Part shown: positions 2,092-53,475 of the stretch, piece after piece
Layout of the letters: each line of letters begins with the position of its first letter
How positions within the stretch are numbered: the first letter of the stretch is position 1
Assembly (NCBI GenBank): GCA_050747525.1
Contig: JBOGOC010000060.1
Location: 69,558 to 133,557, forward strand
Direction: 5' to 3'
Length of the DNA stretch: 64,000 nt
From: Candidatus Polarisedimenticolia bacterium
Lineage (GTDB): Bacteria > Acidobacteriota > Polarisedimenticolia > JACPZX01 > DASXTC01
Notes under the pieces: model-generated
What the model saw: the letters and a program-made list of their open reading frames with translations, nothing else
Database searches by the model: none
Told to the model about the DNA's origin: nothing
Made by a program: the position numbers and the translations under genes

Positions 2092-2510
2092 ATACGCGTC
2101 TCCGGGGCCTCAGACCAGGGGGTAGCGGCTGTCAGAGGGGGTGGCGCGGCTGCTTCAGGCAGACTCCGCCACGTGCCGCTTCACGTTGAAAGTGTTGTCC
2201 GGTAAGGGGTTGCCGCATTCCGGGAGGGGAGGCCTCGGCGAGGGCGCCGTTCCCGAGCCTCGGGGATTCCTCCATGCTCCGCTCATGGGACTCCCGAGCC
2301 CCGTGCAGGTGATCACCCGATAGACGGGTGCGGGGCACACCAGGCGCGCTGATGGCAGAGCGTGGCGTCTTCATGGGAGGAATTGCCAACCGTCGGTCAG
2401 GTATTTATCAGGGTCATACCCGGTAAGTCATCCGAGTGTGGTCGCGGTGCGTGCCCAATAGATTGCCGGTGTCCATAGGGCATGTGTTGCTTCTCACGAG
2501 GAGTCACATC

Positions 2511-4523: not shown

Positions 4524-4529
4524 GCTTCC

Positions 4530-6786: not shown

Positions 6787-7415
6787 TTGCGGAAGCATTG
6801 CCGCTTCGGGCGGTTGCGAAATCGAACCGAGAAGAGCGCGCGCCCTGGGCGGCAGCCGTCGTCCTGTGCGCCGTGATCGATGCCATGGCGGGTGGGGTGC
6901 TGCTGCTCGACACGGCGCTTCCGCAAGAGCTCGAGCTTATTGCCGCAATGGTCCTGCATGCGATGGCGGCGCTGCTCCTCTCAGCATTGCTGCGCGCGCA
7001 ACCCAGCCGCCGGTGGGTTTGCGTGGCGGCGCTGCTGGCCGTGCCGTGCGTCGGCGCCGTGGTTGCCGTCGCGCTCCTCGGTACCCGGGGACGAGGCACG
7101 GCGAGGATCGGGCTGCGCAGGAAGGCACGCCGCCGGCCAGCGTTCAGGCTCGCCGTAGCGCGACCCATCGGGGACGTTCTATCACCCTGCGACGCTCTCG
7201 ATTGCGACGACGAGGAGCTGCGCCGGGCCGTACTCTCGTCGCTCGCCAGGCGGTCGGACCCCGAGGCGATCACGCTGTTGCGCCGGGCGGCGGGAGGACG
7301 CGATCTCGATCTGGCTCTGTCTTCCGCACTGTCCCTGGATGAGATCGCTGAGCGTGCAGAACGACACCGGGACGATCCGCCCTATCCGGCAAAGATGCGG
7401 CATGCAGCCGGTTGA
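6783..7415 (+). CDS. PelE-like membrane protein with C-terminal helical-repeat (TPR/HEAT-like) region
   Basis: ATG at 6783 overlaps PelD-like stop (ATGA). Two TM helices then DCDDEELRRAVLSSLARRSDPEAITLLRRAAGG... repeats. Position matches pelE. Confidence 0.35.
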   Translation: MIAEALPLRAVAKSNREERAPWAAAVVLCAVIDAMAGGVLLLDTALPQELELIAAMVLHAMAALLLSALLRAQPSRRWVCVAALLAVPCVGAVVAVALLGTRGRGTARIGLRRKARRRPAFRLAVARPIGDVLSPCDALDCDDEELRRAVLSSLARRSDPEAITLLRRAAGGRDLDLALSSALSLDEIAERAERHRDDPPYPAKMRHAAG

Positions 7416-8985
7416 GGCCGATGGCGGTACGGCCGCCGCCGACGTCTGCCTCGTGCTGGAAGGAACCTATCCCTATGTGAGCGGAGGCGTGTCAACGTGG
7501 GTGCACGACCTGATCCGCAGCCTGCCCGATCTTCGCTTCGCGCTGGTGCACATCGGCCCGGAGCGAGGCGCGTGCGCCGAAAAACGCTATCCGCTGCCGG
7601 CCAATGTGACCGGGCTGACCGACCTGTATTGTCGAGACCCGTCCCCACGCGGTCGCGATACGGCCGCTCTTCAACGTCAGGCCGATGCAGAGCGCCGCCG
7701 CCACGCCGACGCGCCTCGTACCTCCCGCGTCCTGGGCGCGATCCGGCGGCTGCACCTCGAGAATGAGGTCGATGAGGCGCTGTTCGACGATCTCGCGAGC
7801 AACGACCTTTCGGTTGGCGCGTTCCTCCACGGACAGACCTCGTTGGACTTGACGATGGACCTGTACGAACGGCTGGCGCCCGGGGCCTCATTCCTCGATT
7901 TCTTCTGGCACTATCGGTCGATGCACATGCCGCTCGTCCGTCTGCTCGCGGCGCAGCCGCCCATCGCGGCCGTCTACCACGCCGTCTGCACCGGTTACGC
8001 GGGAGTCCTGGCAGCTGTGTGGAGCCATCGGACAGGTCGTCCGCTCTTGCTGACCGAACACGGCCTCTACAGCCGAGAGCGAAACCTGGAGCTCAACCGC
8101 GCAGCCTGGTTCCGGGAGCCTGGCGAGGATCGCCCGAGCCGGGCCGAGGAGGCGATCGATGACGCCACCGCCGCCTGCCTGCGCAGGATGTGGATGCATT
8201 TCTTCCGCGCACTGGCGCAGTGTACCTATACTCGCGCATCGGTCATCGTCTCGCTGAGCGATCTCCACAGAAAGAGGCAGATCGTGGACGGGGCTCCTTC
8301 AGGCAAGACCCTCGTGGTCCCCAATGGCATCGACCTCGAAAGGCTGCACACGCGCCTCCGCAGAGCGGCGTCCCCGGGCACGCACCAGCGTCCCGTGAGC
8401 GTCGGGTTCGTGGGAAGAGTGGTGCCGATCAAGGACGTCGTCACGTTCATTCGCGCCTGCTCTCTGGCGTTGAGGGCTGTCGAGCTGGACGTGCGCATCA
8501 TCGGTCCGATCGACGAAGACCCGGCGTACGTCCGTCGGTGCCGGCGCCTGGTGGCGAAGCTCGGTCTCGGGCGGGCGGTTCGCTTCGAAGGGCTGTGGCC
8601 GCCCGAACGCATCTACTCCGAAATCGACGTCCTGGTTCTCACGAGCTTCAGTGAAGGCCAGCCGCTCGTCATTCTGGAATCAAGCGCCGCCGGGATTCCG
8701 GTGGTCGCCACCGACGTCGGCGCCTGTCGGGAGCTTCTCGAAGGACGTGGCGACGTCGATCGGCAGTGTGGGCCGAGCGGCATCGTGACGAGGCTCGCCG
8801 CACCGGAAGAGACCGCTGCGGCAATCGTTCGACTGGCTCGGGACCCCTGGCTTCGCCGCCGGATGGGAGCCGCAGGCCGGCGCCGGGTGGCAACGTTCTA
8901 TCGTGAGAGCTCCACGATTTCGACGTACCGGGCTCTCTATAAAGGCGAATCATGGCCGGCATCGGGTGGCGTCTCGACCGCTTGA
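7402..8985 (+). CDS. pelF: PelF-like GT4 glycosyltransferase
   Basis: N-terminus ...ADVCLVLEGTYPYVSGGVSTWVHDLIRSLPDLRFALVHIG is the characteristic PelF N-terminal signature. C-terminal half is GT4/RfaG-like (...IGPIDEDPAYVRRCRRLVAKLGLGRAVRFEGLWPPERIYSEIDVLVLTSFSEGQPLVILESSAAGIPVVATDVGACRELLEG). Confidence 0.65.
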   Translation: MQPVEADGGTAAADVCLVLEGTYPYVSGGVSTWVHDLIRSLPDLRFALVHIGPERGACAEKRYPLPANVTGLTDLYCRDPSPRGRDTAALQRQADAERRRHADAPRTSRVLGAIRRLHLENEVDEALFDDLASNDLSVGAFLHGQTSLDLTMDLYERLAPGASFLDFFWHYRSMHMPLVRLLAAQPPIAAVYHAVCTGYAGVLAAVWSHRTGRPLLLTEHGLYSRERNLELNRAAWFREPGEDRPSRAEEAIDDATAACLRRMWMHFFRALAQCTYTRASVIVSLSDLHRKRQIVDGAPSGKTLVVPNGIDLERLHTRLRRAASPGTHQRPVSVGFVGRVVPIKDVVTFIRACSLALRAVELDVRIIGPIDEDPAYVRRCRRLVAKLGLGRAVRFEGLWPPERIYSEIDVLVLTSFSEGQPLVILESSAAGIPVVATDVGACRELLEGRGDVDRQCGPSGIVTRLAAPEETAAAIVRLARDPWLRRRMGAAGRRRVATFYRESSTISTYRALYKGESWPASGGVSTA

Positions 8986-18600: not shown

Positions 18601-21338
18601 GAAAGGGTGACCGTCGGGTTCTGTGGAATGCAGACGGGCTCCACTCCCACCTTCACGTTCACCGTGGCGCCGGAGTGCGAGGCCGAGTTGACGTTCATGA
18701 AGATGTCGTACACGCCGGGCTGGGCGTCATGGGGAACGCTCCCTCCGAACGGCTGCGGCCGGCTCTCGCCGGGAGGGATCGGGAGCGTGGGATGACAGGC
18801 GGGGATGCAATCGCTCACGGGGAAGAGCTCCCAGTCCTCGGGGCCCGAAACGAGCAGGGTGAAGGTGACGGGAGCGCACGTCGGAGAGTCGTTGTTCGCC
18901 ACGGTCCCCGTGAAGACGGCGAAATCGAACGGCGCCGCGATCATGGCCGTGGGCGAGGCGGTCACGGTGGGCTCCGCGTGGGTGCAGGGGCCCTTGACCG
19001 TCAGCTCGGCCGTGTCGGTGCCGATGTGGGGAACGGCGGGCGGCGTGAGCGGCCTCGATGTGCCGATGGCGTTCACGACGTGCGTGCTGTCGATCGGGGT
19101 CCCGGCCGGGATGAACTTCCTGAGCTGGACGAAGCCGGGAGGGCCGTTGCCGGCCAGGTTGAGGAACGAAGGATTGATGGTGCCGGACCACCCGGCGGGG
19201 AGGGTCGACGTGATGTCGAAACGGTGCACGCCGCAGCCCGCCGTGTCGGTGCTGCGCACCTCCACGGTGAAATTGGCCGGCTCGTTGATGGCGACGTTCT
19301 GAGCGGAGGGCTGCACGTTCACCAGGGGATCACCCAGGACGCAATTCGAGATCACGTCCACGGTCTCGGTCCCCAGGCCGGTGACCGTCGTCCAGGCGGC
19401 CGCCACCGTCACCGTGTACGTCCCCGCTTCCGTGGCCCGGGGGACCGACACGATGGCGGTGCTCGGCTCCGAAGCGCCGGGCGCGATGTCGAGCGTAGGT
19501 GGCTGGAAGGTCGCGGCCCAGCCGGGGGTCGCCGAGCTGAGCTGGTAGGACGCCGTGGGGCAGGAGGCCTCGTCCGGGTTGGTCACGGTGACCGTGAAGG
19601 TCACCGAAGTGCCGTTGTTCACCGTCTGGCCGGCCGGGGAGAGCTGCACGATCGGAGGACGGTGGCATGTGCGCTCGCCGAAGGTCGCGGTCACGTCCAG
19701 CGTCCCCGCGCCGTGGGCCGGGGTCAGCGACAGGCCGGTGTAGCGATCGAAGAACGTCGACCCCGTGGGGAGCGGCGCGTCATTGATGTCGAACGGGGTG
19801 TTTCTCGTGAAATCGATCATGTAGGTGAAGAAGTTCCCGAGGTCGTAATGGATCAGGGCGCCGTCGCAGTCCTGCGGCTCGTTGGAGCGGCAGTCGTAGT
19901 TGCTCTGGTTCGTGCGGGACTCGACCCACAGCCACTCGTTCTCGGTGCCGCGCTGCACCTTGAGCACCCGGGTCCCGGCGGTCGCCAGCTCGTACGGGGG
20001 CAGGGAATAGGTTCCGTCCGTGGTGACCGTGCGCACGTGGATCGCGGGATCGAGCCAGCCGAGCCGCAGCTTGTGGGGCGCGGCGTAATGACCGTAGAAG
20101 GGGCTCCCCATGGCGCTGAACGGATCGCCGTACTCGAGGATCTGCACGGGCTGGGTTCCGGGGAGTGAGAGGGGCTCGCTCCCGAAGTTGATCCAGTTGG
20201 CATGGTGCAGGCCCAGGTTGTGCCCTCCTTCGTGCGCCGACACGAAGACGCCGTACCGGCGCGGGTCGGGCTGATTCGCGATGTGGGTGCCCCAGAGGAA
20301 GGCTCCGGAGGCGGTGAACTGTCCGTCCCCGGAGGTGTGCGTGCTGCAACCCAGGTCGGCCACGCCGCCGAAGGTGCAGGTCGATTGGGGAAACACGATG
20401 AAGATGCGGGTGTACTGACGGAAGTCGACGTCCGCGTCCGCCGCGGCGATGGCCGCGGGCCGTATCGCGTTGTACCCGTCACATGTGAAGTTCTGGCCCA
20501 GCTGATAAGGGCCGAAGACGTCCCCCGAGGCGGATGCGAGCCCGTAGGAGGTCTCCTGCCAGTAGCCGTTCAGGGAGGTGCCGCCGTCGTTGCCGAAGAA
20601 GAAGTTGCGCACGTTCTCGACGCTGAGATAGGGCGGGAGGGTATGGTTCGGAAAGTTCACCAGGAGCACCACGGTGCGCTGGTCCCCCGTCACCGAGCAG
20701 CTCTGCGCCATGACGCCCGCCTGGACCTCGCTCGAAGATGCGGCGATCCGGTCGCCGGCGAGCACCCCTTCCACCTCGAGGAACATCCCGCACATCAGAG
20801 AGTCGGGCGGCGGCCCGGCGAAGTGCACCCTCACCTGCCGACCCCCCAGCTCCAGGGTGATCCGCGTCTCCGACGTCCCTTTGACGAAGTCATCGGCGAC
20901 CTGGACATCCACGGGCCCCTGGAACCGGCCGACCGTCTCCAGGTCGTCCTTGGCCCCGGGGACGTTCGATCCCACGCGCGCCACCGCTTCGGCGTCCAGC
21001 GACGTGGCGAGCGCCGCGGCGGGGTCTTCCTCGATCAGCGACACGAGCTCGACATGACGCTCTCTCAGCAGCTGTTCCGCTCGTCTCTCGATTTCAACGA
21101 CGGCGCCGGGGGGGCCCGCCTCGATCACGTCCTGAAGGCGCAGAACCTCCTCCGTGAGCGCGCTCACCCGTTCGGCGCGGGTCTTCGCGGGAATCGCCGC
21201 GCCGGCCCCATCTCCCCCTGCGGAGGTCCGGGCTTCGTCCGTCTCGACCATCCGTGACCGGGCGGCCATGACGAGGCCGCTCACGCAGCAGAAAACAACC
21301 ACCATCATCGTGAAGCGCGCTCGTGTGCGTCGGCTCAT
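15642..21338 (-). CDS. Giant secreted multidomain protein: metzincin zinc-metalloprotease domain + Ig/CARDB-like domains + 7 RCC1 repeats + beta-propeller repeats + C-terminal FN3-like domain
   Basis: Start ATG (complement 21336-21338) after GGAGGAGG SD; signal peptide MSRRTRARFTMMVVVFCCVSGLVMAA. HEGGHNLGLHH = HExxHxxGxxH metzincin motif. Seven GQLGDGT-type RCC1/ATS1 repeats. Repeated ...PRISY... beta-propeller blades. 1898 aa. Confidence 0.7.
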   Translation of the reverse strand: MSRRTRARFTMMVVVFCCVSGLVMAARSRMVETDEARTSAGGDGAGAAIPAKTRAERVSALTEEVLRLQDVIEAGPPGAVVEIERRAEQLLRERHVELVSLIEEDPAAALATSLDAEAVARVGSNVPGAKDDLETVGRFQGPVDVQVADDFVKGTSETRITLELGGRQVRVHFAGPPPDSLMCGMFLEVEGVLAGDRIAASSSEVQAGVMAQSCSVTGDQRTVVLLVNFPNHTLPPYLSVENVRNFFFGNDGGTSLNGYWQETSYGLASASGDVFGPYQLGQNFTCDGYNAIRPAAIAAADADVDFRQYTRIFIVFPQSTCTFGGVADLGCSTHTSGDGQFTASGAFLWGTHIANQPDPRRYGVFVSAHEGGHNLGLHHANWINFGSEPLSLPGTQPVQILEYGDPFSAMGSPFYGHYAAPHKLRLGWLDPAIHVRTVTTDGTYSLPPYELATAGTRVLKVQRGTENEWLWVESRTNQSNYDCRSNEPQDCDGALIHYDLGNFFTYMIDFTRNTPFDINDAPLPTGSTFFDRYTGLSLTPAHGAGTLDVTATFGERTCHRPPIVQLSPAGQTVNNGTSVTFTVTVTNPDEASCPTASYQLSSATPGWAATFQPPTLDIAPGASEPSTAIVSVPRATEAGTYTVTVAAAWTTVTGLGTETVDVISNCVLGDPLVNVQPSAQNVAINEPANFTVEVRSTDTAGCGVHRFDITSTLPAGWSGTINPSFLNLAGNGPPGFVQLRKFIPAGTPIDSTHVVNAIGTSRPLTPPAVPHIGTDTAELTVKGPCTHAEPTVTASPTAMIAAPFDFAVFTGTVANNDSPTCAPVTFTLLVSGPEDWELFPVSDCIPACHPTLPIPPGESRPQPFGGSVPHDAQPGVYDIFMNVNSASHSGATVNVKVGVEPVCIPQNPTVTLSPSTVQRNAGQPASFTATIANNDIGSTCGPVSFALSASVPAGWGSSLASPVTVAPGASAQVPFTATSPVTAASGPYDVSVTATSTFRSGSGSAVVNVTAPPTTLEAGYGHSLSSGANGVVWAWGINTTGQLGDGTLTNRNGPVRSGSLTGILEVGAGVFHSVALENDGTVWAWGDNAQGQLGDGTTTPRNVPGEVPGLSGIVALASGASHSLALKSDGTVWAWGDNDGGQLGDGGTTDRHAPFQVPGLSGVTALAAGFYHSVALKSDGTVWTWGRNAEGELGDGTHTDRPTPGPVPGLTGVTRVSCGAYFTMTVLADGTSKGWGHNFFGQLGDGTTVERTTPVSVTGLTGVSRIAAGSAFTLALRGDGSVWSFGQNVAGQLGDGTTTHRSTPQQIAGLSSIVEVAAGEDHSLARNAAGLIYGWGKNLYGQIGAGPWPQTTPIVVFDESQPVPLGLISPVGGESWQPGSARTVSWTGQGPISVSLSLDAGETYTTLVSSTSLQDVPITVPADATTVQGRLRIDRVGPPASFAQTGAYLKIQHDPWLVTTVDASPPVTGEFASIALDPWGRTGIAYVDRTNGDLKFALRTGATWSIETVDAVNSTGWYTSLAFGGDGSPRISYMDGTRTYLRYAFKTGSVWTREDVANTNCTLPTSLGFDTADRPFIAIQDCASTKVKVFAKSGGVWSQIRSLTGASPSLRMHGNLPRISYFLHTANPTQLRYLSASGTFGSFTWTDEAVPGSGGATTSSIAMDSQGNPRISFYEAGTRSLRMAKKIGGAWSVEVVDATGGDVGNWSSIALDSSSRPRISYLANGIVKLAEWTGTAWRLDAVDVSGPTPAATALAVDSGGNKRIAYFDTAGGDLRYAISQPDVTPPATPSLVLDAGRTTIVVAWTAPGDDGSTGTASTYDLRRSSSPIDESNFAQATIVPKGPPGPAGMMECADFQSMPSCTPHYFALRVLDDLGNPSGLATGQIVTLCSGFQEVLCF

Positions 21339-21451
21339 GATCCCCTCCTCCTGCTGGATCAGTCGGCCCCCGCGCAGAAATCTGACGCTGGATCGAGGTC
21401 TTTTCGGCGTAGACTGGCTCCACCACGTCTTCAGCGGCACGGGAGAGGAGA

Positions 21452-23920
21452 ATGGGTCGAGCGATCCGCTTGGGCAGCATCGGCATTCTCCTCGCGACGA
21501 TCCTCGGGCCGCTCCCCGTGGCGTCCCCGCCGTGGCCCGCGCCACCCGCAGCCGATCCCGTCCTCGACAGGCTCGTGCGCCAGGAGCGCTATGCCGAAGC
21601 GATGGAGCACGCCGTAGCCATCTTGCGCTTCCATGCGGAGCGATCGGGCCTCATGGCCGAGGACACCCTTGCCGGCCTGGAGCGCGTGGGGAGGACCGCA
21701 TGCGATGCGGGCGACCACGCGACCGCCGAGGCCCTGCTGCGGGCTGCGATCGCGGCGTGGCGCGAGGTGGCGGGCCCGGACGATCCGCGGTTGTCGACGT
21801 GCTGGCTGGCGCTTGCACGGGTGGCCCGACTGAAGAACCTGCGTGAAGCCGCCAGGCAGCACCATCTGGAGGCGCGCCGCCTTCTGCGCGGGGCCGGCCA
21901 CGCATGGGAGGCCATTCTCGCCGATCTGGAGCAGGCCGAGGGAAACTGGATCCGCAAAGAGGACATGAACGAGGCGCTGCGCGTGTACCGGAGATCGCTC
22001 GTCCGGCACCGGCGAGCAGCTCCGGGGATCTCGTTCGAGACCGCGGACAAGCTCACATGGATCGGATGGATGCTGGGCAGGATGGGCCGGTTCGAGGAAG
22101 CCGAGCCCTATCTCCTTCAGGCGCGGGACGAGCTTCGGGCGCTTGGGCTTGCCGGGCACAGCCTCAACGGCGTGATCGCCAACGCCTTCGGCGAGCGCCT
22201 CGCGCTGGCCGGCCGCTGGGATGAGGCCGCTCCGTTCTTCCGGGAGGTGGCCGCGATCTTCGCCGCCTCCCGCGACAGGCACCCGCCGGGATTCTCACGC
22301 CGCGTCCGCCCGCTGGATGGCTTCGAGGGGCTCACCTTCGTCTCGCTGCGGCAGGGCCGCGGCGAGGAGGCGTGGACGACCCTGCAACGGACGCGGGGCG
22401 CGATCCATCTGGACTTCGCGCGCCTCGGCCTCTGGCACGAGCGCGACGAGCAGGGGCACCGGGCTGCGCAGAGCCTTGCACGGGAGCTGCTCGAGCTGCG
22501 TCCCCTGATGGCCTCGCGGCCCGCCTCCGGCCCTCCGCTCTGGTCCCGGACCACTTGGAGGGACGTGCTGCGCTACCTCGAAGTGCAGGGGCGCCTGCGA
22601 TCCATGCAGATGCGGTACCTGGACGCGTTCCCGGTCCCCGAGGCCTCGCTGCCGCGCGTGCAGGCCATGCTCGGTCCGAAGAGCGCGCTGCTGGGCTTCC
22701 TGGAGCCGGAGCTGGGAAGCGACGCCGCGGACGACGTATCGGCGCCGCGCCGCGAGGGCTGGCTCTACGTGGTGCGCCGCACGGGCCCCATCGTCTGGGT
22801 GCCGCTCCCCAGGATGGACGGCGCCGACGCCATCAGGCTGCGCCAAGGCTGGAGCCGCACGAACCGCGCGGCTTTCTGGCCCCTGCACGTGGATCCGGAC
22901 CCCGAAGTGACGGCCGACCACCGGGCGCTCGGCCGCCGGTATCTCGACGCGGCTCTGCCGCAACTGGAGGGGATCGAGCATCTGATCGTCGAGGGGCCCG
23001 TCTTCCCCTTCGACGTCATGATCGGACCGGATGGACGGCCGGTCGCGGACATGTTCGACATCACCTACGTGCCGTCGGCCCACGTGGCATCGATGCTGAA
23101 CGAACGCCGGCGTGAGGCTCCCCGGCAGCCGCCGCGCTCGATCCTGGCCATCTCCGCGGCGGCGCCCGAGCACGGGATCGGCACGCCGGATCGCCTGGCG
23201 CTCGCCTCAGGAGAGGAGCGGGCTCTGCGGCGGGCCAGAAAGGCGTATGCGCGAAGCGAGACGCCGCTCGATCGGCTCCCGCCGCTTCCCTATGCGGCCC
23301 TGGAGGCGTCGCTGGTGGCGGGGAAGTTCCAGGACGCGCTCCTCCTTCAGGGTCCGCGGGACGTGGAAGGGAGACTGGGCGCCATCGCCCGGGCCGGGCG
23401 CCTCGGCCGGTTCGACGTCCTGCATTTCGCCGGCCACTCGCTGAGCGACGGCGCACCCGAGCTGGCCGGGCTCGCCGTGGCCCGGGAGGGCAACGCCGGA
23501 TCGCGCGCCGACGACGGGATCCTCGACGTGGAGGAGATTCTTCTCACCTGGGATCTGGACGCTCAGCTCCTGACCCTCAGCGGCTGCGAGACGGCGCGTG
23601 TCTCCGGGGCGCAGCGCGGCGAGATCCTCGGATTCACTCCGGCGTTGTTCGCGGTGGGAGCGCGCAACGTCCTGTCCAGCCTCTGGCCGGTGGACGATCG
23701 CGCCACGGCTCATCTCATGGATCGCTTCTACGACAATGTCATGGGGCGATACACGGACGAGAGGCTGGGCTCGAGAGGCGGTCCGATGCCCCTGGCCAGG
23801 GCTCTGCGCGAGGCCAGGATGTACCTGCGCTCCATGCGTGACGAGGCCGGGCGGCGCCCCTTCGAGCACCCCGTTTACTGGGCGGGCTTCGTCCTGATCG
23901 GACTGCCCGACGGGAGCTGA
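21452..23920 (+). CDS. Secreted TPR-repeat + CHAT-domain (caspase-like) protease
   Basis: 822 aa; signal peptide. N-terminal TPR-like helices. C-terminal ...RFDVLHFAGHSL...LLTLSGCETARVSG...NVLSSLWPVDDRATAHLMDRFY... matches CHAT domain with catalytic His/Cys dyad. Confidence 0.6.
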   Translation: MGRAIRLGSIGILLATILGPLPVASPPWPAPPAADPVLDRLVRQERYAEAMEHAVAILRFHAERSGLMAEDTLAGLERVGRTACDAGDHATAEALLRAAIAAWREVAGPDDPRLSTCWLALARVARLKNLREAARQHHLEARRLLRGAGHAWEAILADLEQAEGNWIRKEDMNEALRVYRRSLVRHRRAAPGISFETADKLTWIGWMLGRMGRFEEAEPYLLQARDELRALGLAGHSLNGVIANAFGERLALAGRWDEAAPFFREVAAIFAASRDRHPPGFSRRVRPLDGFEGLTFVSLRQGRGEEAWTTLQRTRGAIHLDFARLGLWHERDEQGHRAAQSLARELLELRPLMASRPASGPPLWSRTTWRDVLRYLEVQGRLRSMQMRYLDAFPVPEASLPRVQAMLGPKSALLGFLEPELGSDAADDVSAPRREGWLYVVRRTGPIVWVPLPRMDGADAIRLRQGWSRTNRAAFWPLHVDPDPEVTADHRALGRRYLDAALPQLEGIEHLIVEGPVFPFDVMIGPDGRPVADMFDITYVPSAHVASMLNERRREAPRQPPRSILAISAAAPEHGIGTPDRLALASGEERALRRARKAYARSETPLDRLPPLPYAALEASLVAGKFQDALLLQGPRDVEGRLGAIARAGRLGRFDVLHFAGHSLSDGAPELAGLAVAREGNAGSRADDGILDVEEILLTWDLDAQLLTLSGCETARVSGAQRGEILGFTPALFAVGARNVLSSLWPVDDRATAHLMDRFYDNVMGRYTDERLGSRGGPMPLARALREARMYLRSMRDEAGRRPFEHPVYWAGFVLIGLPDGS

Positions 23921-25663: not shown

Positions 25664-27145
25664 TCACTCGCACCCCTCGAATGTCTGCAAGGGCATCCCG
25701 CTGGGCGCTGACGAGGGCAGGTGCTGGCAGAACTCTACGACTCGCTCGTCGAACAGCCCGTCCCGCACGAAGGTGACCAGGTCGCGGAATTCCGCCGGCG
25801 ATAGATGGATCGGCTTGCGCAGCAACGGGTCGATCCCCGCCAGCAGGATGCCCCGGAACGGGCCAGCGAAGAGATCGGCCGGAAGCGCGGTGACTGCGGG
25901 GTTGTATCGGCGCAGGGATCTTTCCACGCTGAGGTGATGCTCGATGGCCTGCTCCAGAGTGCCGAAGGCCCCATTGTGGAAGAAGCCGGGCGCGACCTTG
26001 AGATTGCGCAGGGGCGCCGTCCGGAACATGTAGCGCAGGGCGAAATCCCCCTCGGTCTGCTGAAATCCGAAGTCCTCGTTCTCACCCGGGCCGTCGAAGA
26101 TGACGTTGCCGGTTCCGGCGCCGAAGACCGGCGCCACCTGCGGGCCTCCGATGCGGTGCGGCTGGAAGTCGCTGAACATCTCGTTGGATGGACCGGCCAC
26201 CGCATGGCAAGTGACGCATCTCGCCTTGCCGAAGAAAAGCAGTGCTCCGCGCTTCTGGGCCCTTGTCATCGCCCTATGGTCGCCGCGCGCGAACCTGTCC
26301 AGTGGCGCGTCCGCGGCGGTGAGGCTGGCCTGGAATTCAGCGATGGCCAGCCGGCGCATGTGTACGGTGATCGCGCCGGCCGCCAGCGGCAGGCCGCCAT
26401 TGAACACCTTGCCGAACTTCTCAAGATAAGCCGGGATCGCGTTCAGCCGTGCGTCCACCGCGTCCTGGATCGGAAGGTTGTGAAAGCCGGACGCGTCGGG
26501 GTCCGGAAGCGTCTGGCCGTGCCCGTCGTCGAACTCGAAGTGCCTTGGGCCGAACGGTCCGGGGTTCTCCGTTATGCCCGTGAATCCGGCCATTTCCACT
26601 AGCTCCGTGGAAGGTAGGGACCCCTGCGCCGCCAGCAGGGTCGGCACGCCGGTCACGATGCCTTCGGGCGGCGGGAACTTGAATCCCAGGGAAGCGTCGA
26701 AGGGATCGCCGGAGAGAGCAACGAAGCGCGGTGTCCACATGAGAGCGGGATAGAAGATAGTGTTGGCCACCATCGGGGATCGGCGCTGATTGCGGGGCCC
26801 GCGGCGGTTTGGCCCAACGACGTCGTTGTTATCCACACCGATGGCCATGCGCTGTGAGTCCCCGAACCCGAACGCCGGCGAGTGACATCCCGCGCAGGAG
26901 TTGTCGTCATGTAGGCCGAGGACCTTGTCGAAGAAGAGCAGGCGGCCAAGATCGGCCAGATCGGGATCGAGGGGTCTGCCCAGCCGGGCTTCGAGAGTCG
27001 ATTCGATCCGGCCCGTGAATTGCGAGCGGGTCAGCGCGCGAGCCAGTCGGACGTCGACGCCGTCCTCCTGGAAGACACTGGGAGCAGTCTGAGCGGCCGC
27101 CGGCAGGAGCGCCATCAGACACGACAACCAGATGAGACGGGACAT
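25664..27145 (-). CDS. Di-haem cytochrome c peroxidase family protein (CCP/MauG/MbnH-like)
   Basis: Signal peptide MSRLIWLSCLMALLPAAAQ; two CxxCH haem sites (CAGCH, CVTCH); FRTAPLRNL...GFFHNGAFGTLEQAIEHH CCP signature. Confidence 0.8.
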   Translation of the reverse strand: MSRLIWLSCLMALLPAAAQTAPSVFQEDGVDVRLARALTRSQFTGRIESTLEARLGRPLDPDLADLGRLLFFDKVLGLHDDNSCAGCHSPAFGFGDSQRMAIGVDNNDVVGPNRRGPRNQRRSPMVANTIFYPALMWTPRFVALSGDPFDASLGFKFPPPEGIVTGVPTLLAAQGSLPSTELVEMAGFTGITENPGPFGPRHFEFDDGHGQTLPDPDASGFHNLPIQDAVDARLNAIPAYLEKFGKVFNGGLPLAAGAITVHMRRLAIAEFQASLTAADAPLDRFARGDHRAMTRAQKRGALLFFGKARCVTCHAVAGPSNEMFSDFQPHRIGGPQVAPVFGAGTGNVIFDGPGENEDFGFQQTEGDFALRYMFRTAPLRNLKVAPGFFHNGAFGTLEQAIEHHLSVERSLRRYNPAVTALPADLFAGPFRGILLAGIDPLLRKPIHLSPAEFRDLVTFVRDGLFDERVVEFCQHLPSSAPSGMPLQTFEGCE

Positions 27146-27282
27146 GCCGCACCTCTTTCTGAGAAACTTCTGAGCGGAGCCAGGTACCAGCCATCGGGGA
27201 CCGGCAGACTTCTGACTTCGCGGCGCTTCCCGGACCCAAATGGTTGCGCCAATCATCGGGAAGCGCCGCAAAACACTCCTAT

Positions 27283-47430: not shown

Positions 47431-49503
47431 TCAGCGGGCCGCCGCGAGCGACCGGGAGAGCCCGGTATCGGCCGCGCGCATCAGGCTCTCGGCATCCTGC
47501 GCGCGCATGGGGCGGCCGAACAGGTACCCCTGGCCGTACCCGCATCTCAGGGCACGGAGCTTCAGGAGCTGGGCCCGCGTCTCGATTCCCTCGGCCACCA
47601 CATCCATGCTCAGCTTGCGCGCCAGGGCGATGATCGAGCCGGCGACCGTCTCGAGGGCAGGCTGGCGGGGCAGCCGGGAGATGAAGCTCTTGTCCAGCTT
47701 GAGCAGGTCGAACGGCAATCTATGCAGGATCGACAAGGACGAATAGCCGGTGCCAAAGTCATCCAGCGCGATCCGAAAGCCGCGGGCACGCAGGCGGTGC
47801 AGGGAGCCGGCCACGTCGTCAGGGCGCTCGATCAGGCAGGATTCCGTGATCTCCAGGTGGATACGCGAAGGATCGGCTCCCGTGTCGGCCAGCAGGTGAT
47901 CCAGGTCGCTCTCCATATGGTCATCGAACAGCCACCTGGGTGAGACGTTCATCTTGATGGCGAGGTCCTTTCGCTTCTCGAACATTTCCTGCCAGCGGCG
48001 AAGCTGCATCATGGCCACCCTGAAGGTATGGCGGCTCATGCGGGCGATGAGGCCCGATTCTTCGGCCAGAGGGATGAATTCGTCCGGCGGAACGGCTCCG
48101 CGGATGGGGTGGTCCCATCTCACGAGCGCCTCGAAGCCGGTGATCCGCTCGGATCGAAGGCTCACCACAGGCTGGTACCAGACCTGGAGCTGCCCGTCTT
48201 CGAGCGCGCGGAAGAGCTCCGTTTCCAGGTGAAGCTCCGCCTGTGCCGTCTCATGCATGTTCCGGTCGTACACTTCCACGCGCGAGCCCCCGCGCTGCTT
48301 GGCGCGGTTCATGGCCATGTGGGCGTCCCGCAGCAGGGAAGCCGCATCGCTGCTGTCGTGCGGGCCAACGGCTATTCCCACGCTCGCACCGAACCTCACA
48401 CTGTGGCCGTCCACTTGAATGGGTCGGCCCAGAGTCTGGAGGATCCGCTCCGCCAGTCCGGCGGCATCCCTGAGGGAGCGCATCTTCTCCAGCACGATGA
48501 CGAACTCGTCCCCCTGGAAACGATAGACGGTCCCGCCCGATTCCAGGCCTGGATCGGATGCGCCGCGCTCGGACACCTGCAGCACCAGCAGGCGGGCCAG
48601 CTCCCGCAACAGGCGGTCGCCCACCGTCGAGCCCAGGCTCTCGTTGATCCGCCGGAAGCGATCCGCGCCCACGTGCAGCACCGCGATGCGCGTCCTGGTC
48701 CGGTGAGCGCGGTGCAGCTGGCGCTCGAGGCGATCCATCAGGACAGCGCGGTTCGGCAGGTCGGTGAGCTCGTCGTGCAGGGCGAGGTGGCGGAGCTGCT
48801 CCTCGTTGAGCCGCAGCTCGTGGATGTCCGCCTGAGAGCCGGCTATCCGCAGCGGCTTCCCGTCGGAGTCCCGCAGGCAGGCCCCTCTTGCCAGCATCCA
48901 CCTCCAGGTCCCGTCCCTGTGTTGCATGCGATACTCGAGCCGAAGGTGTGAGGCGCCCTGAGCGAGATGCTCGCGGATCCCTTCGCGCACGCGCTCGGAG
49001 TCTTCTGGATGCACCCGGTCGAGCCACTCGGCGGGGCGGTCGCCGATCTCTTCCTCCGCGAAGCCCAGCATCGTCTTCCAGCGAGGTGACAGGTAGAGCC
49101 GGTCCTCGTTGAGGTCCCATTCCCAGATGCCATCGTTGGACCCCGCCAGGGCCAGCGTGTGGCGTTGCTCGCTGCGAGACAGCTCGCTCGTACGCTCCTG
49201 CACGAGATCTTCCAGGCGGCTGGAGTAGAAGAGGACGCGGTCCTGAAGCCAGCCGGTCACGCCCGCCGCGACGGCCAGAATCAGGGCGAACAGATCCGCG
49301 AAGTAGTGCACGGGGGTGATGCTGTGCAGACCCGCCAGGAGGCCGACGCTCGGCCAGTCGGGAAGCTCGCCATAGAGATGATGGTAGTCGAACAGGTATC
49401 CGCAGGCCGTCAACGATGCCCCGAAAGCGAAGCCTGCGGCTGCGTAGAGGGCCGTGCGCGGGATGCGCGGCCGGTGCCGCGCGGTGTCCGTCATCGTCGG
49501 CAC
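47431..49503 (-). CDS. Membrane-anchored PAS-GGDEF-EAL sensor (diguanylate cyclase/phosphodiesterase)
   Basis: N-terminal TM helices; PAS (...NDGIWEWDLNEDRLYLSPRWKTMLGF...); GGDEF (...RFQGDEFVIVL...); EAL (...EALVRW...EITES...; ...KLDKSFI...). Confidence 0.8.
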   Translation of the reverse strand: MPTMTDTARHRPRIPRTALYAAAGFAFGASLTACGYLFDYHHLYGELPDWPSVGLLAGLHSITPVHYFADLFALILAVAAGVTGWLQDRVLFYSSRLEDLVQERTSELSRSEQRHTLALAGSNDGIWEWDLNEDRLYLSPRWKTMLGFAEEEIGDRPAEWLDRVHPEDSERVREGIREHLAQGASHLRLEYRMQHRDGTWRWMLARGACLRDSDGKPLRIAGSQADIHELRLNEEQLRHLALHDELTDLPNRAVLMDRLERQLHRAHRTRTRIAVLHVGADRFRRINESLGSTVGDRLLRELARLLVLQVSERGASDPGLESGGTVYRFQGDEFVIVLEKMRSLRDAAGLAERILQTLGRPIQVDGHSVRFGASVGIAVGPHDSSDAASLLRDAHMAMNRAKQRGGSRVEVYDRNMHETAQAELHLETELFRALEDGQLQVWYQPVVSLRSERITGFEALVRWDHPIRGAVPPDEFIPLAEESGLIARMSRHTFRVAMMQLRRWQEMFEKRKDLAIKMNVSPRWLFDDHMESDLDHLLADTGADPSRIHLEITESCLIERPDDVAGSLHRLRARGFRIALDDFGTGYSSLSILHRLPFDLLKLDKSFISRLPRQPALETVAGSIIALARKLSMDVVAEGIETRAQLLKLRALRCGYGQGYLFGRPMRAQDAESLMRAADTGLSRSLAAAR

Positions 49504-50444
49504 CCATCCGGTCTCGAAGGGACGGCCTCGATCGAGGCCGCGAGCACGTCCAGGCGCGCGCCGAGGTCGCGCGAGCCCCCGGCCACGCTGATCGCGTTCA
49601 CGAGCCGCAATCGCTCCAGCTCCTCCAGGGAGAGCATCTTCTGAAGCGGAGTCTGCCCCTTCAGGGATCGAACGGCGTCAAGGCGCTTGCGGATGCGGTG
49701 AGCGAGAGCCGTCCCCAGCTTGCTCAGCCCGGCCGCGTCGGCGGCCGCCAGTCCGGAGGGAGCCTGGCCGATGAACTCCATGAGCAGCTTCTGCTCCCGC
49801 TGCCGCGAGGATCGTGCCGCCGCCAGCTCTGCGGAGAGCGACATGATTTCGCGCTTGAGCGTCTCCATACGCGCGGTCAGAAGCGTCGCCTGCTCCCCTT
49901 CGGCACAGGAGCCGAGCGGGAAGTCTTCGCTCAGCTCCGGCAGGGAGCGCGCCATCATCGTGCGCAGGGCTCCCTGATAGAGGTCGGCCTGCATCAGGCC
50001 GCCTCGATCCGTGCCTGGAGGCACCGTGCCGGTGATCCGGTCGAGCTCCGCGATCACCTGGGTCGCCGCCTCATTCTCCGCCTCCAGGAAGTGGGCGAGC
50101 TCGGTGTCGTCGTCGACGGGGCGTGCTCCTTCCAGGCGCCGGGATGACCTCTGCAGCAGCAGGTTGGTTGCGCTCGAGGCCGACCGCAGAGTGGCGATCC
50201 GTTTCTCGAGCGCGGGAAGCTGGGAGGAGGCAATGCGTCCGTCCGGATCCCAGCGGGCGTCGGATTTCAGGAGGGCTCGAAGCCGCGAGGCAGCTGATGC
50301 GGCGCTTGCGACGTCTCCCGTCACGAGGGCGCCCTGGATACGTGTGAGCAGAGCCTGAGGGTCGTCGCGAAGCTCGGCCGAAGCCACCGTCCAGAGGCTC
50401 GACACGGCAGCGAGGACCAGACCGACCCTAACGACAGCGTTCAT
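49491..50444 (-). CDS. Secreted alpha-helical hypothetical protein
   Basis: Signal peptide MNAVVRVGLVLAAVSSLWTVASA; remainder predicted coiled-coil/helical. Confidence 0.4.
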   Translation of the reverse strand: MNAVVRVGLVLAAVSSLWTVASAELRDDPQALLTRIQGALVTGDVASAASAASRLRALLKSDARWDPDGRIASSQLPALEKRIATLRSASSATNLLLQRSSRRLEGARPVDDDTELAHFLEAENEAATQVIAELDRITGTVPPGTDRGGLMQADLYQGALRTMMARSLPELSEDFPLGSCAEGEQATLLTARMETLKREIMSLSAELAAARSSRQREQKLLMEFIGQAPSGLAAADAAGLSKLGTALAHRIRKRLDAVRSLKGQTPLQKMLSLEELERLRLVNAISVAGGSRDLGARLDVLAASIEAVPSRPDGCRR

Positions 50445-50931
50445 GGAACGTCCCATCTGCGGTGAGGAACCACGGAGGGCTCGCCTCGGCATCGAGGCGC
50501 AGACAGGTCCGATCGGCCGCTCCGTACCGTGACATGCGTGCTCTTGCGAGAGAGCCTCGTGGCAGGGCAATGGAACGGTATGAGGCTGTGCGTGTCCCGG
50601 CGACAGGGGCCACCTCCCAGAGATGGCCGAAGCCTTCTCCGATGATGTAGAAGCGGCCCAGGTGCAGCATGAGCTGGAGCTTCTCGACACGCGATCGTTC
50701 TGCCCTCAGAATCGGACCGGCATCGAGGCGTCCCTGGAAAGGAGCCTGGTCCGACAGGTGGATGGTTCCGCCGGGACCGACCGCCAGGACCATCCTGAAT
50801 GAGCTCTGGTCCAGGGACAGCGTGGCATCCGGGCCGGATGGCTGTCCGGGGGGGCGGCGCTCGGAGCATGCCGCCAGGAGCAAGACGGCGGTGAGGGCCG
50901 CGGCGCATCGGCTGAGGCGCGATGGGAGCAT
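50428..50931 (-). CDS. Lipoprotein (lipobox LLAAC)
   Basis: MLPSRLSRCAAALTAVLLLAACSERRPPG... Confidence 0.45.
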   Translation of the reverse strand: MLPSRLSRCAAALTAVLLLAACSERRPPGQPSGPDATLSLDQSSFRMVLAVGPGGTIHLSDQAPFQGRLDAGPILRAERSRVEKLQLMLHLGRFYIIGEGFGHLWEVAPVAGTRTASYRSIALPRGSLARARMSRYGAADRTCLRLDAEASPPWFLTADGTFHERCR

Positions 50932-51067
50932 CAGAGCGTCCTTGACGAGGTCCGGCCTCGTGAGACGGAGAATGTAGGGCGCGCAGGTGAGAGCTTCGAA
51001 TCGACCGGGCGGCGGAATCTTGGATGTCGTGTCAGTTCGGAGCGACGCGGTGTATGATGACCCGCCC

Positions 51068-51874
51068 ATGAAGCGCCGCTGGAATCTGTCCATCTGGCTC
51101 GGCTTCCTGCTCTTTGCGGCCGTAGCCGTCGCGTACCCGCTGGTGGTGGAGCGCTTCCCCGCCGTGGGAGACGCGACCTGGCCGACCCTTCTGATCTTCC
51201 TGGCCTCGCTGATGCTGATCGGCCGCGGGCTCCTGCGGGCCTTCCGCCGGCCGGCCGAGTACCGCGGGCGCATCGCCGGACCGATCTTCATGGTCCTGGC
51301 GGTCGCCGGCACGGGGCTCTTCGCGTTCAGCCTGCTGTACATGACGCGCCAGCTCCCCTCCTCCGGGCAGGCGCCGCAGGTGGGCGAGATGGCGCCGGAC
51401 TTCCGGCTGGCCGACCTCGACGGCAACCAGGTCGCCCTGGCGGATCTCCTGGGCGGAGGGGGCGCGAGGCCCGGGCATGCCGCTCTCCTCATCTTTTACA
51501 GAGGCTACTGGTGACCGTTCTGCAACTCCGAGTTGCGGAGCTTCCAGAACGATCTTCCCGCGTTCGACGCGCGTGGCGTGAAAATCGTTGCCATCAGCGT
51601 GGATCCTCCCGAGGTGACCCGCGAGCACGCCCGCAAGCAGGGTTACTCCTTCCTGTTCCTTTCCGACCCTGCGGCGGAGACGATCCGCCGCTATGATCTT
51701 CTGCATGAGGGCGCGGCGCCCGGGGGCGGTGACATCGCCCGCCCGGCCGAGTTCCTGATCGACGCCTCGGGCATGGTCCGCTGGACCAACATCACGAAGT
51801 CCTACGCGGATCGGACACGCCCATCCGAAGTGCTGGGAGCCGTGGATTCCCTGGGGCTCGGCGTCCCCCGCTGA
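51068..51874 (+). CDS. Membrane-anchored thioredoxin-fold (redoxin/AhpC-TSA) protein with in-frame TGA at the first Cys of WCxxC: candidate selenoprotein (UxxC), alternatively a nonsense pseudogene
   Basis: ORFs 50987..51514 and 51533..51874 are in the same frame separated only by TGA 51512-51514. Read-through gives ...ALLIFYRGYW-[TGA]-PFCNSELRSFQNDLPAFDARGVKIVAISVDPPEV..., i.e. a perfect redoxin W-C/U-x-x-C motif with TGA at the first Cys. Hairpin tctgcaact-ccg-agttgcgga at 51519-51539 starts 4 nt after TGA. Confidence 0.45.
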
Positions 51875-51939: not shown

Positions 51940-53475
51940 GTGAGCGCCATGCCCGGCCGTGCCGCGGACTTCCACAGGGTTTCTCATCTCTACAGGCTGG
52001 GTGTCCTCCCCACGGAGCAGCCGCACCCCGACACGCACCAGCTGTCCCGCTGGGCGGCCGAGGACCTCCCGCGGGCGATCGCCGTCCTCAGGAGGATCGA
52101 CGAGCAGGCTCTCGACACCATGCTGCGTTACGCCGCGCACGTGGATCGCCTCGCGCGCGCCATCGAGCGCACGCTGGATGCCGGCGGCCGCGTGTTCCTG
52201 TGCGGCTGCGGGGCCACGGGACGGCTGTCGCTCAGCGTGGAGTCGCTGTGGAACCACGGAGGAGGCGACCCGGACCGGATCCGGTCCTTCATGGCCGGAG
52301 GCGACGTGGCCCTGGTGCACGCCCTGGAGGGGTTCGAGGACCATCCCGAGTACGGAGCGCGCCACCTGGAGGAGATGGGGTTCGGCGGCCACGACCTGCT
52401 GGTCAGCTGCACCGAAGGAGGAGAAACCCCCTACGTCATCGGCGCCACGCTGAGAGCGGCGGAGCTCTCGTCCGTCCCCCCGTTCTTCCTCTACTGCAAT
52501 CCCGATGCGATCCTCGCACGGCACGTGGAGAGGTTCCGCAATGTCCGCGAGCATCCCGGCATCGATCCCGTCTGCCTCGACGTGGGACCGATGGCGCTGG
52601 CGGGAAGCACCCGCATGCAGGCCAGCACCGTGCTGCAGCTCGCGGTGGGCATCGCCCTGCTGCACCCCGAGCGCCGCGCCTGCGAGTCGATCGCGCGCCA
52701 CCGCGACCAGGTCCGCGACACGGACTTCTCGTTCCTGGAGGAGTTCGTTCGCACCGAGGCGGCCACCTACGCGGCCGGGCATCACGTGACCTACCGGGTG
52801 CGTGATTTCGGCATCACGGTTCTCACCGACACCACAGAGCGGGCGCCCACCTTCAGCCTGGTCCCGTTCGACCAGCTCGAAGAGAGGCGCGAAACGCACT
52901 CGCTTTGCTACGTGGCTCTGGAGGATGCGCCGACCCCGGGCGAGGCGTGGCGCCGCCTGCTGGGCCGCCCTCCCCGGGCGCTGGACTGGCCCGACGTGGA
53001 CTCCAGGACCGGCGAAGGCTACCTGCATGGCTTCGACTTCAGCGCGGAGGCGGCGCGCCGCCGGCGCGATCAGATCCCAGGCAGGAGGCACGAGGAGCTG
53101 TGCATCGGCCGCACCTCGGCGGGTTTCTCGCTGGAGATGGCGGGCCGGCGCCACGAGGTCCGCGCGGCGCACCTGCCCGACCTGTTCCAGCACCTCATGC
53201 TCAAGCAGATGCTCAACATCCAGTCCACCCTGGTGATGGGGCGGCTGGGACGGTACGAAGGGAACCTCATGACCTGGGTGGCTCCCACCAACGGCAAGCT
53301 GATCGACCGCGCGGCGCGCTACGTGATCCATCTGCTGTCGCGCGCGGGGCGCGGCGAGCCCTCCTACGAAGATGTCGTGGATCAGCTCTTCGCCCAGATG
53401 GAGGACGCCCGTCCCGGCGAGCCGCTGGTTCTGAACGCCTGTCAGGCTCTCCTGCGCCGCCGCGCGGCGAGTTGA
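51940..53475 (+). CDS. Double SIS-domain protein of the GCKR / MurNAc-6-P etherase (MurQ) family
   Basis: 511 aa; ...VFLCGCGATGRLS...; ...LAGSTRMQASTVLQL... closely resembles the MurQ/GCKR conserved GSTRxKAGTAQK motif. Confidence 0.55.
   Translation: MSAMPGRAADFHRVSHLYRLGVLPTEQPHPDTHQLSRWAAEDLPRAIAVLRRIDEQALDTMLRYAAHVDRLARAIERTLDAGGRVFLCGCGATGRLSLSVESLWNHGGGDPDRIRSFMAGGDVALVHALEGFEDHPEYGARHLEEMGFGGHDLLVSCTEGGETPYVIGATLRAAELSSVPPFFLYCNPDAILARHVERFRNVREHPGIDPVCLDVGPMALAGSTRMQASTVLQLAVGIALLHPERRACESIARHRDQVRDTDFSFLEEFVRTEAATYAAGHHVTYRVRDFGITVLTDTTERAPTFSLVPFDQLEERRETHSLCYVALEDAPTPGEAWRRLLGRPPRALDWPDVDSRTGEGYLHGFDFSAEAARRRRDQIPGRRHEELCIGRTSAGFSLEMAGRRHEVRAAHLPDLFQHLMLKQMLNIQSTLVMGRLGRYEGNLMTWVAPTNGKLIDRAARYVIHLLSRAGRGEPSYEDVVDQLFAQMEDARPGEPLVLNACQALLRRRAAS

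Follow-up and report, generated by a model that had tools for sequence, protein, structure and literature searches.

In a 64-kb stretch of DNA from a Candidatus Polarisedimenticolia bacterium (phylum Acidobacteriota), which as a whole we call the window, we identify the gene at 51068-51874 as a probable genuine selenoprotein gene, i.e., one in which the UGA codon at 51512-51514 would be read as selenocysteine (Sec); judged from the sequence, we put the probability of this at about 0.88. Decoding of the UGA as Sec would give one product of 268 amino acids (aa), a redoxin with a peroxiredoxin (Prx) fold that three N-terminal transmembrane helices would anchor, with its redox domain most likely on the outer (periplasmic) side of the membrane, and with Sec in the first position of a U-x-x-C motif. 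The UGA is conserved in two phyla, and is followed by a conserved RNA element that lies within the coding sequence. Residues are numbered from the ATG at 51068, RNA positions count the U of the UGA as 1, and the coordinates of all features are collected in Table 1.

Gene and reading frame

Direct reading of the forward strand of the window confirmed what had been noted in a preliminary description of this DNA, namely that two open reading frames (ORFs) in the same frame, the second of them ending at 51874, are separated only by the TGA at 51512-51514, and that translation across this TGA gives the peptide ...LLIFYRGYW-U-PFCNSELRSFQ...VAISVDPPEV.... That description had the gene begin at a GTG at 50987, which we replace by the ATG at 51068, because homologues begin with MKRRWN.... 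With this start the product is 268 aa long, Sec is residue 149 and its partner Cys residue 152, and hydropathy points to three helices, in agreement with the membrane-anchored redoxin of about 270 aa and three transmembrane segments that had been proposed. In GenBank only the first 148 aa of this product are called, as a "hypothetical protein" (P0001, the self-match in our database search, from a Candidatus Polarisedimenticolia metagenome-assembled genome, Acidobacteriota, on a 173.6-kb contig that holds locus tag ACREAA_10330).

Conservation of the UGA among relatives

A scan of one genome per species returned at least 600 pattern-matched stretches, at least 570 of which encode a relative of this protein, and we aligned the best 80 loci, which share about 50% amino-acid identity. 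Forty of these are from Acidobacteriota (Polarisedimenticolia, Thermoanaerobaculia, Terriglobia, Bryobacteraceae, Pyrinomonadaceae and Holophagales) and 40 from Verrucomicrobiota (Udaeobacter and Chthoniobacterales), so that with the window the alignment holds 81 sequences. The carriers of the gene include large assemblies, e.g., CAVUHL010000003.1 (8.4 Mb, Holophagales) and CAVTRV010000002.1 (3.7 Mb). The homologous codon is TGA in 81 of 81, with TAA, TAG and Cys codons each absent, and none of the 81 genes has more than this one stop in frame. At their ends, these genes use all three stop codons (41 TGA, 27 TAG and 13 TAA), and the internal TGA is therefore not an ordinary stop, which would not always be TGA. 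The sequence past the UGA is translated: the ratio of nonsynonymous to synonymous substitution rates is about 0.25 both upstream and downstream of the UGA, so that purifying selection past the TGA is at least as strong as before it, and the relatives share 57% of residues with the window after the UGA vs 45% before.

These findings bear on whether the locus is instead a pseudogene, the result of a sequencing error, or a gene that is truly split, so that the 148-aa membrane protein would be complete as annotated and the ORF downstream would either go untranslated or yield a separate product. GenBank annotates the N-terminal ORF only, and a single window is by itself compatible with a nonsense mutation, a recent one having been named earlier as the alternative to a selenoprotein. 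Against this stand the recurrence of the TGA at this codon in 81 of 81 independent assemblies from two phyla, an internal stop that is never TAA or TAG, the purifying selection downstream, and a break that falls inside the Prx-fold domain, with strand beta-1 before it and the active-site helix after it, and we regard this explanation as very improbable. A comparison of homologues had been suggested as a check on whether Cys or TGA occupies this position, and its outcome is not that of Cys everywhere and TGA only here; it is TGA throughout the alignment together with a conserved RNA structure in both phyla, which disposes of a recent nonsense mutation.

Searches of protein databases showed the same break. 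For example, 74 of the 120 homologue clusters listed terminate exactly at ...FYRG(Y/F/H)W, and a HMMER search run exhaustively with the N-terminal 148 aa as query returned 451 cluster representatives at E<=1e-3, with 113 of the best 150 representatives (50%-identity clusters) ending at the same codon. At the Sec column, 19 of the 120 listed clusters have Cys, with TGC or TGT confirmed in the DNA of the Cys homologues, one has Ser (P0013) and one has Glu (P0021). Together with the TGA in all 81 aligned genes, these Cys forms bear out the earlier placement of the TGA at the first Cys of a redoxin motif, i.e., a UxxC selenoprotein.

In a further 12 of the 120 listed clusters (JGI "peroxiredoxins") W stands at the Sec position, and in one G (P0016); these clusters (P0005-P0007, P0009-P0012, P0015-P0017, P0019, P0029 and P0033) lie on short metagenomic contigs. 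The DNA of one W cluster, P0007 (locus L089, 872-874), has TGA at this codon, and we therefore read the W and G calls as TGA translated under genetic code 4 or 25, with the other W and G clusters judged by analogy; the gene caller apparently switched to code 4 or 25 on account of the single TGA codon.

Decoding of the UGA as Trp, Cys or Gly, either by reassignment of the stop or by near-cognate read-through aided by the downstream hairpin, would fit these 13 gene calls at face value. It would also fit the failure of our searches of the window and loci to show Sec machinery, and the C that follows the UGA in 79 of 81 sequences, since UGA followed by C is a leaky termination context. TGA is, by contrast, the commonest true terminator both in the window, where it ends 30 of the 38 ORFs having a complete stop codon, and among the relatives, where it ends 287 of the 516 long ORFs in their loci; TGA is thus a normal terminator here, and codon reassignment is rejected. 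Moreover, the sole in-frame TGA of each gene sits at the active-site column where homologues with a sense codon carry Cys, Ser in P0013 and Glu in P0021 being the exceptions, the hairpin described below has the G-U loop and the spacing of SelB-binding selenocysteine insertion sequence (SECIS) elements, and Acidobacteria are already recorded as Sec users in Table 2 of PMC1794560 and Table 2 of PMC12013277. We therefore consider decoding as an amino acid other than Sec improbable.

Two of the homologues differ in other ways. In P0013 (L090 10001-10945, on a 7.3-Mb contig), Ser (AGC) replaces Sec and Ala replaces the preceding Trp (…RGHA-S-PFC…), and, judged from this motif, the activity of such an SxxC variant, if any, must differ. 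P0052 (449 aa, NCBI), which is on the same 46.6-kb contig as the truncated P0043, is annotated as the C-terminal half of the redoxin (MRSFEERL..., from just past the SECIS) joined to glycosyltransferase family 2 domains, which is either a true downstream fusion or an artefact that arose in annotation because the Sec codon was not recognised.

A candidate SECIS element within the coding sequence

The 51 nt that begin with the UGA align without gaps across the 81 genes, and positions 15-23, 25-27 and 29 are invariant, i.e., 13 of the 15 core nucleotides are identical in the two phyla. This freezes the codons AAC UCC GAG UUR CGG directly downstream of the UxxC motif in the 81 sequences. Asn153 is encoded by AAC only (77 of the 77 sequences having Asn), Ser154 by TCC, Glu155 by GAG and Arg157 by CGG in 81 of 81, and Leu156 only by TTG or TTA, while just upstream the invariant Arg145 and Gly146 use five and four codons, respectively. 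Homologues with a sense codon in place of the UGA are of two kinds. Diverged Cys homologues read GAC CTG CGC, AAC CTG CGC or GAA ATG CGG, and the Ser homologue (P0013/L090) reads AAT TCC GAA TTG CGC, i.e., its SECIS codons have decayed. The Cys forms L083 (762-812) and L084 (1972-2022) keep AAC TCC GAG TTG CGG, and in L086 (1744-1794) CGG has become CAG; from their sequences, these three are probably recent Sec-to-Cys converts with a "fossil" SECIS. A covariance model built from the 81 sequences scores the window at 64 bits, these three forms at 46-58 bits and the diverged forms at 8-34 bits, and finds no second copy in the 64-kb window.

The hairpin that we propose as the upper part of the SECIS has the form AACUCCG/AGUUR/CGGAGUU (positions 13-19/25-31), and is lengthened in the window by the A-U pairs 51524-51543 and 51525-51542, with C51541 bulged. 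Across the alignment 94.4% of cells are paired, each of the 79 distinct sequences forms the 5-bp core and the loop A-G-U-U is invariant. There is one compensatory change, from A-U to U-A (L042), all 14 of 14 changes of A28 to G keep a U-G pair, and the covariation score is equalled by 5 of 500 shuffles. Stability in relatives falls in a narrow range, from -6.5 to -9.4 kcal/mol. The published model of bacterial SECIS elements (PMC13188914 Fig. 2; spacing also PMC10778597) has a loop of 3-9 nt, a stem of 4-16 bp, a G among the first two loop nucleotides (the next being usually G or U), a distance of 16-37 nt from the UGA and a minimum free energy of at most -7.5 kcal/mol, and our hairpin agrees with it on every point, with a loop of 5 nt, a stem of 5-7 bp, G at loop position 2 followed by U, and a distance of 16 nt. 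The minimum free energy of the 45 nt from the UGA is -7.9 kcal/mol or lower in 81 of 81 sequences and -18.4 kcal/mol in the window, where 2 of 200 dinucleotide shuffles fold as well (z = -3.6).

In the mechanism that we propose, this hairpin (core 51526-51540, loop AGUUG) would recruit SelB with Sec-tRNA(Sec) to the ribosome. Sequence-specific recognition of the SECIS by SelB is known from the E. coli and Moorella SECIS-SelB complexes, and by analogy the invariance of the loop A-G-U-U is as such recognition would lead one to expect.

The preliminary description had proposed a different hairpin as the SECIS, with a 9-bp stem and the loop CCG, tctgcaact-ccg-agttgcgga at 51519-51539. This hairpin is real in the window sequence, and is mutually exclusive with the AGUUG-loop hairpin, which it overlaps. 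We rejected it as the SECIS, since it has no G in the required loop positions and its spacing is 13 nt, which makes it an unlikely SECIS. Pairing holds in 92.8% of its cells, with no covariation (411 of 500 shuffles as good), a C-A mismatch occurs at pair 12-24 in 18 relatives, and its folding energy among relatives runs from -0.8 to -11.2 kcal/mol. With most positions invariant, it is mainly the criteria of the model and the uniform stability that decide between the two hairpins.

The lower stem of the full predicted stem-loop was also considered as a family-wide element, and was rejected. It is paired in 50.6% of cells across the family, no better than in shuffles, and is thus lineage-specific.

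Predicted membrane anchor, fold and active site

In Pfam the protein matches AhpC-TSA at 100 bits (cut-off 26), as well as Redoxin (E=7e-18). For the structure, we used the AlphaFold model of the Cys homologue P0002, which is 53% identical to the window protein (pLDDT 92.9); in it, membrane helices precede a Prx fold, whose helix 155-166 begins with the CxxC motif. Foldseek with this model gave TM-scores of 0.87-0.89 (target-normalised) to Bcp4 and AhpE, and the closest solved sequences are the BCP/PrxQ and AhpE peroxiredoxins (E=1.7e-15), followed by ResA. The charge is +2.6 at the N-terminus and +3.7 in loop 2, vs +0.6 in loop 1 and +1.1 after the third transmembrane helix, and from this bias, which holds across the 81 sequences, an N-in/C-out topology, with the redox domain on the periplasmic side, is predicted by the positive-inside rule.

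Alignment to solved structures places Sec149 on the Thr of the Prx TxxC motif, Cys152 on the peroxidatic Cys and Arg145 on the Prx Pro. The column of the Prx catalytic Arg is occupied by Pro226, with a nearly invariant Arg225 one residue earlier, and a shift of the alignment by one residue is possible. Of the Prx signature PxxxTxxC, the sequence F-Y-R-G-Y-W-U-P-F-C keeps the Cys alone, and the site looks like a thioredoxin-type CxxC with a cis-Pro on a Prx scaffold. In the motif W-U149-P-F-C152, Sec would thus occupy the position of the attacking Cys of thioredoxin-like proteins, which is the position of the conserved Thr of peroxiredoxins, and the chemistry would most likely be a cycle between a selenol/thiol and a selenenylsulfide, with Sec as the nucleophile. 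By analogy, our best guess of the function is an extracytoplasmic thiol:disulfide oxidoreductase of the ResA/TlpA type.

A selenoprotein that works as a peroxidase is the main rival as to function, and in our view doubtful. Here Sec149 would react with a hydroperoxide and become a selenenic acid, to be resolved by Cys152, and the product would then be reduced by a periplasmic reductant, a chemistry like that of glutathione peroxidases on a Prx scaffold. Glutathione peroxidases use Sec at the same structural position, the closest solved structures and sequences are all peroxiredoxins, ahead of ResA, Cys152 aligns with the peroxidatic Cys, and Arg225 is one residue from the catalytic Arg column. 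On the other side, the PxxxTxxC signature is lost, with Arg145 for Pro and Sec for Thr, and the catalytic Arg column holds Pro226, as in ResA-type proteins with a cis-Pro. In addition, proteins with PF00578 and a UxxC motif are classed in the passages compared as thiol:disulfide oxidoreductases, a class that is itself a prediction (PMC1088965, PMC9312934).

No curated model covers the clade, which accounts for the annotation failure, the best NCBIfam matches being far below their cut-offs. The best of these is ResA (NF002854; 1.4e-13, 51.2 bits vs a cut-off of 170), followed by the SelL-related family NF040769 (49.6 bits vs 120), PrxU (NF040737; 22.1 bits vs 270) and MauD (19.6 bits vs 188.6); BCP is likewise far under its cut-off, and no TlpA or DsbE family matched in NCBIfam at E<=0.01.

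Selenium machinery and genomic context

Several points weigh against the reading of 51068-51874 as a selenoprotein gene. As the preliminary description had also observed, the window holds no selA, selB or selD, which were not found among the 30 of 39 predicted window ORFs scanned with NCBIfam and Pfam. The flanks of the 80 loci likewise contain no selA, selB or selD, and ARAGORN found no tRNA-Sec in the window or in L001-L060, and no tRNA of any kind in the window. SelD gave no tblastn match in the window or the loci, which is a weak test, made with an E. coli SelD sequence as query. The Sec trait of the organism is thus assumed from the gene itself, and no neighbouring gene is conserved across phyla among the loci to point to a pathway. 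As to the RNA element, most SECIS positions are invariant, so that support from covariation is thin (the one compensatory pair), the 9-bp hairpin is almost as well paired as the one we prefer, the 16-nt spacing is at the lower edge of the SECIS model, and no Rfam family reached its gathering score in the window, with only chance matches at E<=10. Finally, we infer SelB dependence, topology, redox partner and substrate.

Synteny is confined to Udaeobacter and Chthoniobacterales (L009-L075, from about -1.5 kb to +3 kb of the TGA). In these loci, an ORF upstream (about 516 aa) looks by eye like a membrane transporter, one downstream (about 234 aa) carries C-terminal Cys-x-x-Cys pairs (by eye), and there are also an ORF of about 374 aa with an N-terminal GTP-binding motif (by eye) and a tRNA-Pro(GGG). 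Neither the Acidobacteriota loci nor the window share any of these neighbours. The neighbours in the window, which in addition to those in Table 1 include a DUF6335 protein and a Ser/Thr kinase with beta-propeller repeats, have no connection with redox or selenium functions.

The TGA at 51512-51514 is the only in-frame TGA in the window that has coding-like sequence on both sides and lies outside ORF boundaries and outside 15642-21545, and a survey of in-frame TGA codons together with the SECIS covariance model found no other credible selenoprotein gene in the window. The apparent candidates opposite 15642-21545 are artefacts of a large minus-strand ORF (1,967 aa, with high G+C at third codon positions); the G+C content of the window as a whole is 68%. 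Two promoter-like sites were found in the region of the gene vs 0.0 expected in shuffles, and the one listed in Table 1, if used, would imply a very short leader or a leaderless mRNA.

Other regions of the window encode proteins of separate interest. A 398-aa protein (12465-13661, minus strand) has a C-terminal TlpA/ResA-like redoxin domain with an ordinary W-C-G-T-C motif, i.e., it is a Cys form and not a selenoprotein, and matches the selenoprotein family NF041054 (WAxxUGC) weakly (38 bits vs a cut-off of 300); it is the second redoxin of extracytoplasmic type in the window. A PelF-type GT4 glycosyltransferase (7339-8985, plus strand; E=4.8e-136) lies in a run of same-strand ORFs (2436-10319) that, from its sequence, is probably a Pel-like exopolysaccharide locus. 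A MauG/MbnH-like di-heme enzyme is encoded at 25664-27271 (minus strand), with E about 1e-33 to 1e-29, below family cut-offs.

Table 1. Coordinates of the candidate selenoprotein gene, its protein and RNA features, and neighbouring genes in the window.
Feature	Position	Strand	Basis or remark
Candidate complete selenoprotein gene, 268 codons plus terminal TGA (51872-51874), single internal UGA	51068-51874	+	ORF reading, homologue starts, Pfam
UGA, putative Sec149, first position of the U-P-F-C motif	51512-51514	+	TGA in 81/81 aligned genes; Cys at this column in 19 full-length clusters
TGC, Cys152, UxxC partner of Sec; aligns with the peroxidatic Cys of peroxiredoxins	51521-51523	+	Invariant in all alignments; PDB alignments
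Proposed SECIS upper hairpin	51524-51543; 5-bp core 51526-51530/51536-51540, apical loop AGUUG 51531-51535	+	Conservation, folding
Full predicted stem-loop including lower stem CGUUCUG 51516-51522/CAGAACG 51545-51551	51513-51554	+	Fold -18.4 kcal/mol
Hairpin of the preliminary description, 9 bp including one G-U, loop CCG	51519-51539 (positions 8-16/20-28)	+	Real in the window sequence
Transmembrane helix 1, residues 9-27	51092-51148	+	Hydropathy; P0002 model helical at 7-34 (DSSP H7-21, H23-29, H31-34)
Transmembrane helix 2, residues 38-59	51179-51244	+	Hydropathy; P0002 model 38-60
Transmembrane helix 3, residues 73-91	51284-51340	+	Hydropathy; P0002 model 70-94
AhpC/TSA (Prx-fold) domain, residues 105-239, spanning the UGA	51380-51784	+	PF00578 E=1.2e-28
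Promoter-like site GTGTCA-18 nt-TATGAT, ending 10 nt before ATG 51068	51029-51058	+	Sigma-70-like consensus match only
PAS-GGDEF-EAL protein	47431-49503	-	Window neighbour
ORF without family assignment	49491-50690	-	Window neighbour
SIS-domain protein	51940-53475		Window neighbour

Annotation and significance

We consider the chances about even that the clade to which this gene belongs is a distinct, undescribed and systematically misannotated subfamily, i.e., a periplasm-facing, three-helix-anchored Prx-fold U-x-x-C redoxin, almost obligately Sec-containing, spread over hundreds of soil species in Acidobacteriota and Verrucomicrobiota (Candidatus Udaeobacter among them), and with a SECIS core that is the same in both phyla and dictates the peptide N-S-E-L-R as well. 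If this is true, the gene could serve as a simple genomic marker for the use of selenium by dominant soil bacteria. Its occurrence would also imply that many soil Acidobacteriota and Verrucomicrobiota retain the Sec machinery for an extracytoplasmic redox enzyme, and in this clade the preference for Sec over Cys is far stronger than most thiol-oxidoreductase families show.

The consequences for annotation are more immediate. Gene models break at the same codon in at least 74 of the 120 listed clusters and in 113 of the best 150 representatives, and on short contigs Trp or Gly is put at the active site; a profile of the clade combined with the 13-nt SECIS core would correct hundreds of records. 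The gene would also be a clean example of dual coding, in which an RNA signal freezes five codons and recent Sec-to-Cys converts keep a "fossil" SECIS. The current understanding of Sec decoding is unchanged by these findings, which amount to a correction of annotation and possibly a useful new clade, and not to a new mechanism.

Comparison with known systems

The RNA element is like the bacterial SECIS consensus (the Zhang and Gladyshev model; PMC13188914, PMC10778597) in its small loop with G-U at positions 2-3, its upper stem of 5-7 bp and its location inside the ORF. Unlike a typical bacterial SECIS, it has an unusually invariant core (13 of 15 nt in 81 genes from two phyla) and the minimum allowed spacing, and no Rfam model detects it.

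Among proteins, the closest by sequence and fold are the BCP/PrxQ and AhpE peroxiredoxins (2ywn, 2cx3, 3hjp and 1xvw), on whose peroxidatic Cys Cys152 falls. These are soluble, whereas the window protein would be membrane-anchored, and the Pro and Thr of PxxxTxxC are replaced in it by Arg and Sec, with Pro226 at the Arg column. The SelL-related family (NF040769) and PrxU (NF040737) are related to Prx-fold selenoproteins, as is the window protein, and match it weakly (see above); PrxU differs in having Sec at the peroxidatic position (TxxU), whereas Sec would be at the Thr column here.

The likeness to ResA, TlpA and CcmG (DsbE) lies in the active site and the anchor. The window protein shares with them a W-C/U-x-x-C motif where the active-site helix begins, a Pro (RPAEF) in the cis-Pro column, a Glu three residues past the second Cys, an N-terminal membrane anchor and a domain predicted to face outward, and ResA is its best NCBIfam match. 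It differs from them in scoring 51 bits against the ResA cut-off of 170, in having three helices rather than one, in its Sec in place of Cys, and in a sequence and fold closer to BCP/PrxQ. Among the conserved neighbour clusters, of which the Verrucomicrobiota-specific ones were read, ccdA, dsbD and cytochrome-maturation families were not prominent.

The known system that fits best is the family of Prx-like thiol:disulfide oxidoreductase selenoproteins, the "Prx-like 1" of ocean metagenome surveys, which, in the passages of the literature compared, is defined by PF00578 with a UxxC or UxxU motif (PMC1088965, PMC2398784, PMC9312934, PMC13188914), has been known since 2005, and has WP_010940744.1 as its reference member in reviews. 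In those passages, selenoprotein families are defined by domain and Sec motif, and since the PF00578 domain and the UxxC motif both fit, we assign the gene on domain and motif to this known type, as the preliminary description had anticipated in likening it to known Prx-like and thioredoxin-like Sec proteins. Like the members of that family, it has UxxC in place of the Prx TxxC/TxxU, a SECIS directly past the UGA, and Cys homologues. Unlike them, the clade of the window gene has a three-helix N-terminal membrane anchor; the word "transmembrane" is absent from the main text of PMC2398784, and the "membrane" passages of PMC13188914 do not concern the Prx-like family. The passages compared describe neither this anchor nor a distribution in soil Acidobacteriota and Verrucomicrobiota, a predominance of Sec or a SECIS core that is nearly identical across phyla. 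The Prx-like selenoproteins are from Deltaproteobacteria and marine samples, whereas this clade is found in soil Acidobacteriota and Verrucomicrobiota, and the balance between Sec and Cys is also different, with 74 truncated and 13 W or G clusters vs 19 Cys clusters among the 120 listed here, as against 225 Sec vs 2,740 Cys forms of Prx-like 1 in the ocean survey.

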